Source: a virus
Taxonomy: Duplodnaviria; Caudoviricetes
Strand: one strand, 5' to 3'
Virus record (IMG/VR): IMGVR_UViG_3300047282_000135
Coordinates: 1-37,613 of that record
DNA length: 37,613 nucleotides
In this document: in pieces, positions 6,905 to 30,810 of the stretch
Numbering within the stretch: the stretch's first letter is position 1
Layout: each line of letters opens with the position of its first letter
Made by a program: the position numbers and the translations under genes
The notes under the pieces: generated by a model
Database searches by the model: none
Seen by the model: the letters and a program-made list of their open reading frames with translations, nothing else
What the model was told of the DNA's origin: nothing

Positions 6905-7294
6905 TCAGCTGTACTTCTTAGAGCCGAGAGCCACCACGGAAACGGCGCCGGTGCCGGTGCCGCCGGTCACAGTGAAGAGCACGCGAACGTAACGACGGAG
7001 ATCGTTGCTGTTCAGGTAGATCTTCTCTTGGAATGCGGTGTTAGCAGCAGCAGCGGTGAAGCCGCCACCGGTCACATCCACGAAATCGCCGGAGGTGGTG
7101 GTGTTGCTGTGCTGGATCTTGGCGGTCAGGGTGACGCCAGAGCCGGCAGCAGCTGCATCGATGATGAAGGCAACGTCGCCCTCATAGTCCACGAGATCAA
7201 CGTTGGCGGGGGTGCCAGCGCCGGTGGATGCAACGACTGCGTTGTTGTGCAGCTCGAGCAGATCGGTCTTAGATCCGAGGTTGTGGATGGTCAT
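6905..7294 (-). CDS. Putative head decoration protein
   Basis: 129 aa, beta-rich (KIQHS..., RRYVRV), directly after the capsid gene. Confidence 0.55.
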   Translation of the reverse strand: MTIHNLGSKTDLLELHNNAVVASTGAGTPANVDLVDYEGDVAFIIDAAAAGSGVTLTAKIQHSNTTTSGDFVDVTGGGFTAAAANTAFQEKIYLNSNDLRRYVRVLFTVTGGTGTGAVSVVALGSKKYS

Positions 7295-18608: not shown

Positions 18609-19967
18609 TTATTGCCGGCCACGCGCATAGAGCACATGCTTAGCCCAGCCAACTGGGTTCTTCATTCCACGGGCTTGGCCGAGGTGGATCAGCTCTTGCA
18701 ATGTGCGCGCTTGGCCTTGCTCACGGCGTGCGGTGCGTTGCTCGGTGCGCTTCAGCTCCTGCAGTTCTCCTGCGATTTGACGGATGACGCGCGATTTAAT
18801 CGGCTGGCATTGTGCGCCACAGACCGGGCAAATCGGCGCCGGCTTGAACGCGGCGTAACACTCAGGGCATGTGCGCACTGACGGCGCTGCGGTGCCGCTG
18901 CGCTTCACTGCACCCTCGGCCAGGCTCCACTCGCGCGGATCATCTGGGAATCCATGGCGCGGCACGTTGCCAACGTGATCGAGGATGATTGCGGCATCCT
19001 TGCCTGGCGCTGGGCGCAGCACGCGGCCCACCTGCTGTAGGTAAAGGCCGAGCGATTGCGTGGGCCTGAGTAACACGGCGCAACTGGCGGCGGGCACATC
19101 GAAGCCCTCACTGACCACATCCACGGTCACGAGCACGCGAATCACGCCAGCGGCATATTGCGCCACTACTGCATCACGATCCTGCGTATCGCCCAGCAGC
19201 AGCGCTGCGCCAATCCCGGCTGTCTTAAATGCGTCGCACACTGAGACGGCATGGGCGACATTGCAGCAGAAGGCGATGGCCTGCTGTCCTGCTGCCAGGC
19301 GCTGATAATGCGCGATGGCATCGCCGGTCACTGTGGGTCGATCCATAGCGGCCGCGGCCTGATCGTTGGCGTAGTCGCCGGCTCGCGTGCGGATGCCATT
19401 GAGATCAGCCACTACTGGCGGCGCATAAATCCGTGCAGGCGATAGGAACCCGGCATTGATCAGATCTGCTACTGACGGGCCAAGCACCATGGCATCAAAG
19501 GCGCTGCGCAGTCCCTCGCCCGAGAGGCGGCATGGCGTGGCGGTAACACCCAGCCGGTAGGCATCGGGCCAATGATCGAGGACGCGCGCCCACTGCCCTG
19601 CAGTGGCGTGGTGGGCTTCATCAATAATGATCAGCCCCGGTTGCCAATCCATGCGGGCCAGCCTGCGGGCGAGCGTTTGCACGGATGCGATCTGTACCGG
19701 TGCATCTGTAGCAGGCACACCAGCGGCGATGATGCCGTGTTGAAGGCCGATCCATTGGAGCTTGCTGCTGGCCTGGTGGATCAGCTCACGGCGATGCACC
19801 AGGATCAGCACGCGGTTGCCTTTTGCTGCAGCGCTGGCGGCGATGGTGGAGAAGACGATGGTTTTGCCGCCGCCGGTCGGCAGCACTAGCAGCGGTGCGC
19901 GGGCGCCAGAGCGGTAGGCATCGCGCAGATCATCAATGGCGCGCTGCTGGTAGGGGCGGAGGTGCAT
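18609..19967 (-). CDS. Superfamily 2 helicase (RadD/YejH-like) with C-terminal Zn finger
   Basis: LRPYQ, PTGGGKT, DEAHH, TATP, EGFD, QQVGRVLR and CPEC/CPVC. The likely start is the ATG at 19967. Confidence 0.93.
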   Translation of the reverse strand: MHLRPYQQRAIDDLRDAYRSGARAPLLVLPTGGGKTIVFSTIAASAAAKGNRVLILVHRRELIHQASSKLQWIGLQHGIIAAGVPATDAPVQIASVQTLARRLARMDWQPGLIIIDEAHHATAGQWARVLDHWPDAYRLGVTATPCRLSGEGLRSAFDAMVLGPSVADLINAGFLSPARIYAPPVVADLNGIRTRAGDYANDQAAAAMDRPTVTGDAIAHYQRLAAGQQAIAFCCNVAHAVSVCDAFKTAGIGAALLLGDTQDRDAVVAQYAAGVIRVLVTVDVVSEGFDVPAASCAVLLRPTQSLGLYLQQVGRVLRPAPGKDAAIILDHVGNVPRHGFPDDPREWSLAEGAVKRSGTAAPSVRTCPECYAAFKPAPICPVCGAQCQPIKSRVIRQIAGELQELKRTEQRTARREQGQARTLQELIHLGQARGMKNPVGWAKHVLYARGRQ

Positions 19968-19970
19968 GGG

Positions 19971-20101
19971 GTTGCGGCCCCGGTTGCCCAGGGCCTCGGT
20001 GGTTGGCGGTGATGCGCGGCATAGTGCGATGCGGAGACTCACTGGGAATTGAGCTGCTCAGCGGGTTAACGCGGGGCGACGCAGAATGGCAGGCACAGCC
20101 C
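19971..20101 (-). ncRNA. Pentamer-array ncRNA unit C (putative guide RNA)
   Basis: 17 or more pentamers at 20007-20091 (plus-strand consensus M-R-N-N-G). On the minus strand they are followed by CGCCAACCACCGA, hairpin GGCCCTGG-GCAA-CCGGGGCC and GCAAC. Confidence 0.75.
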
Positions 20102-20131
20102 ACCAGATAGCCGATAGCTAAGTGTTGGGTT

Positions 20132-20240
20132 GTTGCGTGGCCCCGAAGGGCCACTCGGTGGTTGGCGACGAGCGGCACAGCGCTACTACGCAGATCAGGG
20201 CAAAGAGCAGCGCTAAACTGATATGCAGAGAGCCGAATGT
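20132..20240 (-). ncRNA. Pentamer-array ncRNA unit B (putative guide RNA)
   Basis: 14 pentamers at 20166-20235, followed on the minus strand by CGCCAACCACCGA, hairpin GTGGCCC-TTCG-GGGCCAC and GCAAC. Confidence 0.75.
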
Positions 20241-20270
20241 GGGCCTTACACCTAACGGATGCCCAGATCA

Positions 20271-20774
20271 TCAGCCCTCTAGTTGCGGTGGCTTTTTACC
20301 TGCACGTTTGAGCAATCTGAGCTGACGTTGTGCGCCTTGTGCTGATGCAGCGATGAATGAATGCACGTTGATGCGATTCTGATGTTCGCGGCGTGCAGCA
20401 CCTGTCAGCTTGCTGTCATCAATCGAGCTAACCAATCTGCTGGTAGCGCGTTGATGGCGGCGAAGCCCTTGAAATGCCTGATCATTCAGATAGGCAGATG
20501 CGTTCTCATCGGTCAGGACATTGATTACGCCTCCGACGGTGTTCATCACCAAGGGCGGGAGTTCCTTTTCGCGTCGATCACGCTCCAGCCAATCACGCAC
20601 CTGAAGCAGCACATACGGCAGTTTGGCTAGCTTGACTAACTCTTCATCACCGAGTTCATCAATCCAGCTTTGCAATTTATCTGGCTTGCGATTGACATAG
20701 TGCTCCCATGCCAGTTCTGCTGGGATTGTCTGGCCCTTGTAAAGAGCTGTTGAATCGATGGATGCGCTTTTCAT
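20271..20774 (-). CDS. Accessory protein coupled to the Cas7/RAMP-like gene (function unknown)
   Basis: 167 aa from the ATG at 20774, which overlaps the upstream stop (TGATG). It looks helical and has a basic C-terminus. Confidence 0.75.
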   Translation of the reverse strand: MKSASIDSTALYKGQTIPAELAWEHYVNRKPDKLQSWIDELGDEELVKLAKLPYVLLQVRDWLERDRREKELPPLVMNTVGGVINVLTDENASAYLNDQAFQGLRRHQRATSRLVSSIDDSKLTGAARREHQNRINVHSFIAASAQGAQRQLRLLKRAGKKPPQLEG

Positions 20775-21403
20775 CAGCCGATCTCCACTTCTTCTAGGTG
20801 GGTGACTTGAAAGCGACCGTGCATTGGTCGCCATGTACCAAGTCCCTCAGCAATACCGGCACGGTCAAGGATCTTGGCCAGCGTTTGCGGGTCAATGATC
20901 TCATCATTCACCAGCATGGAATACTTTGCTGCCCAATGCGGGATGCGAACACGAACGGCCATGGTGCCGCGTCCGGTTGGCGCGATTGATAGGAAGCGGG
21001 AGTCTTCATACATGACGGCAGCATCACGCGGTCCGTCGTAGATGAGTTCTGCGTCGCCTTCCACAACGATGGCGCGTTTGGTGTCTTTGCCCAGCTTCCA
21101 TGCGGTTGCACCATCGCGGATGCAGCGCTGCAAGTTTTGCGCGGGCAGGAATGGATCGCGGAAACCTTCAAAGCTGGAATCACCATCCAGTGATGTGCCA
21201 TAAGTGAAGGTGCCCTCTGTGCCCCAATAGCCAGAGAAGAGCCAATGCAAACGGCGCAGCGCGTGCTCGTTGCGGTTCTTCTTCATGGCGGTGAAGTATT
21301 TGATCGCTGCTGCATGTGGCCCGAGTGGGTCGACTGTGCAGGGATTGGACAGGATGACCGGGCGTGTGCCCTCAAGCGTTAGTTCAAAGCGGCGAAATGC
21401 CAT
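20774..21403 (-). CDS. Cas7/RAMP-like (Vipr-like) RNA-binding protein
   Basis: N-terminal strand FELTLEGTRPVI, central PFLPAQNLQRCI resembling the RAMP P-x-I-P-x-x-x-x-K helix, and C-terminal Gly-rich loop AGIAEGLGTWRPMHGRFQV. Flanked by repeat arrays. The fold is assigned from motifs only. Confidence 0.72.
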   Translation of the reverse strand: MAFRRFELTLEGTRPVILSNPCTVDPLGPHAAAIKYFTAMKKNRNEHALRRLHWLFSGYWGTEGTFTYGTSLDGDSSFEGFRDPFLPAQNLQRCIRDGATAWKLGKDTKRAIVVEGDAELIYDGPRDAAVMYEDSRFLSIAPTGRGTMAVRVRIPHWAAKYSMLVNDEIIDPQTLAKILDRAGIAEGLGTWRPMHGRFQVTHLEEVEIG

Positions 21404-21421
21404 GGATGTCCTCGTGGGTTA

Positions 21422-21545
21422 GTTGCAGGGCCTGAAGCCAGGCCCTTCTGTGGTGTGCGCAGAAATGCGTCAGACGGCAGGAAAAGGCGGCGAATGGCGC
21501 GGCAATGAGCAGCGCATCAGAGCTCCGAAAAGCAGTGACCCGCAA
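21422..21545 (-). ncRNA. Pentamer-array ncRNA unit A (putative guide RNA)
   Basis: 17 pentamers at 21458-21542, followed on the minus strand by CGCACACCACAGA, hairpin AGGGCCTG-GCTT-CAGGCCCT and GCAAC. Confidence 0.75.
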
Positions 21546-21601
21546 ACCATACCAGCATCCGGCCGCATCCGCTAGTATCTGCCTGAAACCCGCTGCAATG
21601 C

Positions 21602-29302: not shown

Positions 29303-29734
29303 ATGACCACCAGCGTAGAGGTGTGGAAGCCCGTTGTCGGCCACGAGGGCCTGTACGAGGTTTCCGATCAGGGTCGGGTGAGGAGCCTGGATCGCACAAT
29401 CCAAACCCGATCCAGCAAGCGCACTTACAAAGGACAGCTGATCAAGCCGACCTCAAGCGGCAAAAAGGGGTACCTAGTCGTTCGATTGTCGTGGCCCGCG
29501 CGACAAAAGTTTTATGTTCATGCACTTGTTGCAGCTGCTTTTCACGGCCCGAGGCCAACCGGCTTTGATTGTCGGCATTTGAATGACAATCATTTAGACA
29601 ACAGAGCAAGCAACTTGGCTTGGGGAACGCGGGAAGAAAACATGCGAGACGCTAGGCGGAACGGAAAACTGGCAACAGGAGACAGGTGCAAATGGCAATA
29701 TCGCAGCAGAAACAAACTAGGACAGTTTCAGTAA
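29303..29734 (+). CDS. NUMOD4-HNH homing endonuclease
   Basis: EVWKPVVGHEGLYEVSDQGRVRS (NUMOD4) and CRHLNDNHLDNRASNLAWGTREEN. Confidence 0.9.
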   Translation: MTTSVEVWKPVVGHEGLYEVSDQGRVRSLDRTIQTRSSKRTYKGQLIKPTSSGKKGYLVVRLSWPARQKFYVHALVAAAFHGPRPTGFDCRHLNDNHLDNRASNLAWGTREENMRDARRNGKLATGDRCKWQYRSRNKLGQFQ

Positions 29735-30810
29735 TCCCAAACAACTCTGGGACGCCCTTTTCTGATTCCAGTGTGGATGAATCCGCGAGGCGCTCCTTTG
29801 CCGGTGCTGAATGGCCAGTTCTTGATGCACCATTCCTGCAGCTTGTAGATATCGACTCCTTGGATGTACCAGTCGACCGCGCCAACGCCTAGTGCGTTGT
29901 AAAGATGCTCGCTCCCGCTGGCCCCGCCGACTGAGCGATTCACGGCTGGCGGTCTGAAGCCGCTGGTGATGATGATCGGCTTTCCGCCAAATGCCGTCCG
30001 GGCACGCTCCAAGAATGCAGCCAGCTCAGCCGCAGTGTCCAGCTGGTATTGGTGCTGGAACCGCCGCGCTTCCTGATCCAGCGCAAATTCCCCCAACCTG
30101 ATGTGCGGCGTAATCCGCGCATTGAATGGGCTGCTGGACCGCAGCTTTGCAGTTTCAGGCTCGGCCGCAGCTTGATGCTGCCCCCATAGCTTGCCTTCTG
30201 CACGGCGCCGCCGCAGCAGGCCAGCTTCCACGTTGGTGCCAGGGTTCCTGTACAACTCCATCGCGGCAGGCACCGCAGCCCAGTCACGGTCGCGCAGCTT
30301 GGCCGTGATCGTCTCAAACCCAGCGGTGCCATAGAAGCCTGCGCCGAGGTTGTAGGCAAAGCTCACTAGCGCTGATCGCTGCTGGTCATCCATCACCTTC
30401 CAGTGCGGGATGGTGGTGCGCAGCTTGTCAGCAATGCGATCCACCTCCAGCCGCAACAGCATGTCGGCCTCGATCACGTTGATCTTATCGCCGCGCTTCA
30501 CGGGCACGCCGCCGCTGTAGCGCGTGGTGCCATAGCCAATGGTCCACGGGTCACCGCCGCTAAGCGGATCGGGATAGGCCGAGAGGTGGCAGCCTTCAAA
30601 CTCCCGAATCAAGCTGATCGCGGCGCTTAGGTCGCTTTGCTTGCCGTCTTGGCTCCACGTCTGAAACCACTCTCGATCCCTGCGCATCACGGCGTCGTAG
30701 CCGTTGGCGCTCAGATCGGTTTCTAACTGCTGAATCGCGGCGGTTTGATGCGGCAGCGCCTTGTAATACCTGAACAGCTGCTGCAACGAGATTCGCGCGT
30801 CGTTGGCCAT
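29728..30810 (-). CDS. Endolysin: GH24 lysozyme plus M15-type peptidase
   Basis: FEGCHLSAYPD...WTIGYG, ALVSFAYNLG and GLLRRRRAE. The C-terminus has TSGFRP...SEHL...AVD...FIH. Confidence 0.9.
   Translation of the reverse strand: MANDARISLQQLFRYYKALPHQTAAIQQLETDLSANGYDAVMRRDREWFQTWSQDGKQSDLSAAISLIREFEGCHLSAYPDPLSGGDPWTIGYGTTRYSGGVPVKRGDKINVIEADMLLRLEVDRIADKLRTTIPHWKVMDDQQRSALVSFAYNLGAGFYGTAGFETITAKLRDRDWAAVPAAMELYRNPGTNVEAGLLRRRRAEGKLWGQHQAAAEPETAKLRSSSPFNARITPHIRLGEFALDQEARRFQHQYQLDTAAELAAFLERARTAFGGKPIIITSGFRPPAVNRSVGGASGSEHLYNALGVGAVDWYIQGVDIYKLQEWCIKNWPFSTGKGAPRGFIHTGIRKGRPRVVWDY

Follow-up and report, generated by a model that had tools for sequence, protein, structure and literature searches.

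The minus strand between positions 19966 and 21546 of the window, the whole stretch of DNA analyzed here (37,613 nucleotides), carries two genes flanked by three non-coding periodic tracts. VIPR systems combine Vipr and vap with vrRNAs that are built of 9-16 pentamers and in which variable dinucleotides (NN) read DNA with one base skipped, usually the wobble base (10.64898/2026.04.26.720920). We assign the locus to these systems on its sequence and a structure model, because Vipr homology and fold, a partner gene, and three periodic tracts with common tails coincide here. The vipr gene (20774-21403) specifies a predicted stand-alone RAMP protein of 209 amino acids with the G-loop GIAEGLGTWRP, which matched Vipr of coliphage SUSP1 (PDB) with a phmmer E value of 2.1e-11 and a profile E value of 8.9e-25. 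Its structure model (pLDDT, 91.7) found its fold matches among Cmr and Csm3 RAMPs, and the RRM, thumb, and G-loop of a stand-alone Vipr RAMP are all present. The vipr stop is overlapped by the ATG of a candidate vap accessory gene (20271-20774; 167 amino acids), the product of which is predicted, with low confidence, to be all-helical. Of 80 related loci, 73 have a homolog of this partner immediately behind vipr. No family was identified for it, its low-confidence model gave no fold match, and no similarity was found to a Felixounavirus partner in a vap1-type comparison. Vipr, one accessory gene, and flanking non-coding tracts make up the minimal layout of a VIPR locus; a sigma-70 promoter consensus was looked for and not found.

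The window, a complete virus record of 37.5 kb with direct terminal repeats of 127 nt, comes from a siphovirus of the S-CBS1/S-CBS3 type. A picocyanobacterial host is likely, because the protease-capsid fusion is 53-55% identical to that of the Synechococcus phages S-CBS1, S-CBS3, and S-LBS1; the runs that best cover the VIPR locus are freshwater metagenomes, and the two that contain it in full may be its source. Elsewhere, positions 29728-30810 (minus strand) encode a phage lysozyme domain fused to a peptidase M15 domain. In run X3, one contig connects 19975 with 21626; a relative may thus be missing the entire VIPR cassette between the helicase and exonuclease genes. Vipr proteins of 78-89% identity occur in phage records of 51-62 kb (G001-G004; loci L003, L010, L013, and L021) without a PF05065 capsid, a distribution that suggests movement of the cassette between phages of unrelated type.

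Guide tracts, tails, and linkers

Tract A lies upstream of vipr, tracts B and C downstream of it. On the minus strand, all three run into a common tail with a hairpin. Tract A (21457-21546; 17 NN) has a slot at 21459-21536 that varies among relatives; its 3' tail (21415-21456), with a hairpin at 21427-21446, precedes the vipr start. Just past the vap stop, a conserved hairpin, E1 (20240-20266), stands 5' of vrRNA B, whose guide tract (20165-20239; 14 NN) is replaced in relatives by 72 or 88 other letters and whose 3' tail (20136-20167) forms a UUCG hairpin (20137-20154). A second conserved structured linker, E2 (20087-20135), separates vrRNA B from vrRNA C. The guide tract of vrRNA C (20006-20085) comprises 16 scaffold trimers and 15-16 variable NN pairs, delimited by its periodicity and by a slot (20009-20084/86) that is replaced in relatives. 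Its 3' tail (19966-20008) consists of a AACCACCGAG linker and a GCAA-loop hairpin (19976-19995) and ends next to the helicase ATG.

The tracts are periodic, with a scaffold trimer and a hypervariable NN in each pentamer. In tract C, 7 of 16 trimers are CGC and 13 of 16 end in C; its minus-strand sequence has the form (CGC-like/NN)n. Its Y-G-C score is reached by only 18 of 74,812 genome windows, all 18 in arrays A, B, and C, a test that is partly circular since the motif was learned from relatives. A GTG-started extension of the helicase frame does reach 20042, and the tract might in principle be periodic by chance or belong to the 5' region of that frame, rather than being a guide. Against this stand the three tracts with common tails around vipr, the sole top-scoring places in the genome, and the swapping of the slot in relatives, which make a non-guide origin very improbable. 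We regard array C as almost certainly a VIPR guide.

Hairpins provide a structured 3' tail at all three tracts, with weak single z-scores (−1.6 to −1.7). The C tail hairpin folds better on the minus strand (z of −1.56 versus +1.60), and for the E2 linker the plus strand gives the better fold (−2.55 versus −1.72 for minus). E2 was found in 23 copies with a consensus stem of 13 pairs, 6 of which show two-sided change, and we consider it a candidate processing signal. An Rfam search of the window stretch and 10 related loci returned no ribozyme match and no meaningful match at all, linkers included; hammerhead ribozymes, which lie between guides in VIPR types I and V, were thus not detected in these sequences. 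Across the clade, conserved structured linkers between guides fall into three classes (window 20087-20135 and 20240-20266; L003:11252-11299, L004:1512-1559, and L005:6693-6740), which are likewise candidate processing signals. Several guide units are duplicated internally in the first downstream tract of L020-L022, a possible trace of guide expansion. More distant loci (L174, L184, L206, and L223; 41-46% identity) have no CGC tract within 180 nt upstream of vipr and share a short TCCGTTAAGG repeat motif.

Slot exchange and the CGC scaffold

A preliminary description of this DNA had listed 19 variable plus-strand pairs in array C, and all of them lie at 20009+5i exactly as listed. The exchange of slots among relatives sets a shorter limit to the guide itself. 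Contigs from another study carry 66 other letters between 20008 and 20085, in place of 76 (20009-20084), and several of them keep 20087-20160 while the sequence before it differs. Joints between contigs and the window fall at 20012-20087, 20167-20240, and 21458-21537. Likewise, locus L001, whose Vipr is identical to that of the window, aligns up to 20087 and resumes from 20008. All 23 linker copies have an unchanged GG behind pair 19. Because slot swaps end at 20084/86 and the stretch that follows belongs to the 23-copy linker E2, pairs 17-19 (A-Q/H-P) are not guide. By these sequence comparisons, guide C is made up of pairs 1-15 or 1-16, and pairs 17-19 are fixed linker. The earlier alignment of the final A-[QH]-P to the capsid motif G-x-G-x-x-x-x-P therefore falls away. 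The exchange of slot C between close relatives points to turnover of guide slots under selection.

Across 49 tracts of the window and related loci, CGC accounts for 325 of 671 trimers, with C at position 1 in 460, G at position 2 in 445, and C at position 3 in 618, in a count in which the detector favored CGC, some tracts overlap, and tract A was missed. All 16 NN occur in these tracts. In SUSP1 Vipr, the available passages of the structural report describe H17 and D177 as reading G1 and R138 and W178 as reading G2, with R179 helping to hold Y3 (10.64898/2026.04.26.720927). In the alignment to SUSP1, H17 corresponds to S19 and D177 to T190, and the readers of G2 and Y3 are kept (R151, W191, and R192). 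Threonine precedes WR in 88 of 101 near homologs, and aspartate occupies that place in 56 of 146 distant ones. The canonical GGY scaffold with the G1-reading H17/D177 pair of type II systems (SUSP1 and Pseudomonas fulva, P. fulva, prophage) is thus absent here, with CGC, S19, and T190 instead. Since H17/D177 are replaced while R151/W191/R192 are kept, we infer that CGC replaced GGY through loss of G1 reading with G2 and Y3 reading retained. The residue map also favors a minus-strand RNA, and the plus-strand preference of the E2 fold speaks against one.

Non-canonical VIPR repeats of the forms YNNNG and NNNNG appear in the methods of one report (10.64898/2026.04.26.720920), and GAC/NN, CAC/NN, and other scaffolds appear in the available part of another (10.64898/2026.10.21.760802). 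CGC/NN is a member of the YNNNG (NGY) class. The literature passages on VIPR repeats do not name a CGC scaffold, which may stand in figures or data tables; where one VIPR paper does contain CGC, the letters belong to sequences of another kind. A search for literature linking VIPR, cyanophages, and guide RNA found none.

Candidate targets of guide C

The preliminary description had read the variable dinucleotides as a gapped target with the wobble base skipped and had proposed the coding strand of a foreign capsid gene. The decoding logic was right in kind and is the VIPR rule already published (10.64898/2026.04.26.720920). The evidence it gave was a match of 8 of 19 pairs to the major capsid segment of the phage itself (7935-7991, minus strand; LALKIDLAGLYGTGSNGEP). 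These 8 pairs (23 of 38 bases) are there, at a level expected by chance: order-shuffled guides found a best own-genome match of at least 8 pairs in 407 of 500 shuffles, another place in the genome scores 8 pairs and 25 bases with guide C, and in a six-frame BLOSUM comparison 141 of 300 shuffles did as well with 16 pairs and 24 of 300 with 19. Because only 16 pairs lie inside the real slot, the match is properly 7 of 16. We therefore set it aside as evidence for a target on the shuffle and BLOSUM tests. That guide C instead tunes the phage's own capsid gene by partial pairing is hardly credible; a six-frame BLOSUM comparison across the window does rank the capsid motif of the phage itself first, but 7 of 16 pairs is chance level and published systems contain no self-target at 80% or above (10.64898/2026.04.26.720920).

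Better support for a foreign capsid comes from a codon-aware profile of 99 capsids: at the D-x-x-x-L-x-G-T-G motif, guide C with its 16 pairs scores 14.2 bits, a value equaled by 14 of 5000 shuffles; with pairs 2-16, 30 of 5000 shuffles did as well. Over 94 guide readings, the two best scores belong to guide C and to the upstream guide of locus L023, both in the frame first proposed for guide C, and 3 readings reach p ≤ 0.01 where about 1 is expected. L023 has the same neighborhood as the window (78% identity over 1.7 kb) and 97% identity over the available part of Vipr. Its guide (L023:9867-9946) fits the D-V-A-V-R-x-P motif at the C terminus of HK97 capsids, also in the same frame (18 of 5000 shuffles with 15 pairs; 0 of 5000 with 16, the last pair having been added after viewing), with 8 of 16 as its best natural match. 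The capsid family was chosen after decoding, and a p of 0.003 multiplied by about 60 (proteome size and two readings) is not significant alone. A score of 19.9 bits for 19 pairs (0 of 5000 shuffles) was put aside with the fixed linker pairs 17-19, which leaves the capsid Q-P fit an unexplained coincidence.

Familiar motifs can be found at 50-60% for guides A and B as well, which shows how little such a resemblance costs once the family is picked after the fact. For guide B, 8 of 14 decoded residues agree with the N terminus of related Vipr proteins (equaled by 135 of 2000 shuffles in a plain count and by 91 of 5000 against a profile), a weak hint that it targets a rival vipr gene. In the opposite reading, guide A gives W/C-W/C-I/M-R-Q/H-A, similar to sigma-70 region 2.4 (9 of 17; 20 of 2000 shuffles), and a related upstream guide in L001 reaches 9 of 15 to the same region (6 of 2000). 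A sigma-70 gene adjoins vipr in L171. The differences between guide A and L001 were dropped as proof of the opposite reading frame, being synonymous in other registers as well. The best of 120 sigma-70 homologs matched guide A at 9 of 17; an exact 9-pair viral scan with guide A gave 0 matches and a degenerate scan 7, the best at 10 of 17, and no target at 80% was found. The slot-C guide of L001 (near 7064-7108 of that locus) agrees with Vipr helix 1 of P0260 at 8 of 10 decoded residues (3 of 2000 shuffles), one of 96 readings tested, and is a candidate anti-VIPR guide. Because it decodes to a natural Vipr in the same frame, this protein-level match supports the codon-aligned one-skip rule in this clade, for which DNA-level scans give no support: clade guides scanned against related phage DNA with one skip did no better than with 0 or 2.

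The near-perfect in-frame capsid match that the preliminary description had proposed to seek by pattern search did not emerge from viral, metagenome, or GTDB scans, in which the best score, 11 of 16, is chance. In IMG/VR, exact searches gave 0 matches for pairs 3-14, 23 for pairs 1-8, and 19 for pairs 8-15 (best overall, 10 of 16). Exact searches with pairs 1-11 gave 0 matches in metagenomes and 1 in GTDB, where 0.07 are expected by chance; this match (L066; 11 of 16) was rejected as a target, lying out of frame in mutL with pairs 12-16 all unmatched. Degenerate capsid patterns gave 17 viral matches, 9 of them capsid-like by eye (best, 9 of 16), and 62 metagenome matches, of which 61 were scored (best, 11 of 16) and none was capsid-like by eye. 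The best of 121 capsids scored against guide C matched 8 of 16 pairs, as did 562 of 2000 shuffles by plain count. The guide C pattern with up to 3 base mismatches gave 0 matches in the own record and five related records. Among 249 sequences (2.38 Mb), many of them loci fetched with the patterns themselves, the best scores were 11 of 16 for C, 8 of 14 for B, and 10 of 17 for A, with no target at 80% or above for any of the three. Records with a related vipr contained a Pfam capsid in 0 of 5 and then 1 of 20 cases, and the motif of the one was unlike guide C. Since the scans require exact half-matches, they could overlook a target whose 2-3 mismatches are scattered. Clade guides (48 and 49 tracts) likewise showed no DNA target at 80% or above beyond shuffles in related phage DNA, where one 7-pair tract reached 6 of 7 at shuffle level.

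These blank searches would also be expected if guide C had aged and drifted until it matched no target, and several of its trimers are non-consensus (TAT, TAA, and AGT). We consider this improbable in view of the exchange of the slot among close relatives, the intact vipr and partner genes, and the other 46 scanned tracts, which are likewise without targets. Because those tracts also had none, the collections rather than the guide probably explain the blanks. A stronger competitor is a working guide whose target, in a satellite, a rival phage, or the host, is some other gene, frame, or strand, its capsid likeness being coincidental. No capsid was found with more than 9 of 16 pairs, guides A (9 of 17, sigma-70 region 2.4) and B (8 of 14, Vipr N terminus) illustrate how easily likeness is had after the fact, and published targets, in the parts of the reports available, are mostly recombinases, regulators, and vipr genes (10.64898/2026.04.26.720920; 10.64898/2026.10.15.759431). 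The profile p of about 0.003 at the best-conserved capsid motif and the second capsid-like guide in the sibling L023 weigh against it, and we give it a substantial but smaller share of belief. The proposal of a foreign capsid gene thus keeps moderate support from the profile (14 of 5000) and the L023 guide, with no target site found. On balance, array C is best explained as a swappable VIPR guide, most likely against the HK97-type capsid gene of a rival element, a reading to which we assign a probability of roughly 55%.

Proposed mechanism and relation to known VIPR systems

The operon is likely transcribed on the minus strand; RNA run X20 has no coverage at the locus and speaks neither for nor against this. 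The homology and fold of Vipr, the three periodic tracts, slot exchange, and the CGC scaffold of the clade are features of the sequences themselves; the later steps are drawn by analogy from SUSP1. The linkers would release vrRNAs B and C, and Vipr would coat the guide RNA as a filament with one Vipr per pentamer, as in SUSP1. The 15-16 NN pairs of vrRNA C would then bind the coding strand of a rival HK97-type capsid gene with every third base flipped out. Again by analogy with SUSP1, the bound Vipr filament would block transcription of the target and silence the gene. Synonymous third-position changes in the target would not give escape, and the phage's own capsid would be spared because only 7 of 16 pairs match. 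In a bolder and tentative extension, S-CBS-like freshwater cyanophages would use CGC-scaffold VIPR guides against the major capsid gene of an unsequenced capsid-forming satellite or a rival siphovirus, hitting two conserved motifs (guide C and the L023 guide), with slots swapped between lakes and guides released by a new class of structured linker.

The VIPR system and its code are already published, and this locus adds details within a known system. It gives exact boundaries of natural guide exchange, which are useful for the open question of vrRNA acquisition. The S19/T190 residue pair offers a testable explanation of the scaffold change, and guide C can serve as a search pattern for a competitor with a capsid that has so far gone unseen.

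Like the type II systems of coliphage SUSP1 and the P. fulva prophage (10.64898/2026.04.26.720920), the locus has a homologous stand-alone RAMP in a two-gene operon, a single guide before the operon and an array after it, pentamers in 14-17 units, a structured 3' tail, and a codon-aligned one-skip reading that is the published rule. It differs from them in its CGC-like (NGY) rather than GGY scaffold, S19/T190 in place of H17/D177, a hairpin tail with separate conserved linkers, a partner gene unlike that of a Felixounavirus, and a likely cyanobacterial host. The fold is shared with Cas7-group RAMPs of Class 1 CRISPR (Csm3 and Cmr), whereas the guide here is non-contiguous and no CRISPR array or other cas gene was noted in the window. 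In purpose, the locus parallels the vrRNAs that target vipr genes and satellites, described in the available passages of a further report as codon-register guides against rival elements (10.64898/2026.10.15.759431). Vipr-targeting guides are already known from those passages, and the slot-C guide of L001, perhaps with guide B, would join them in decoding to vipr segments. A capsid-gene target and a cyanophage are absent from the same passages; a capsid target, once confirmed, would bring virion assembly genes and conflict among aquatic cyanophages into the range of VIPR.
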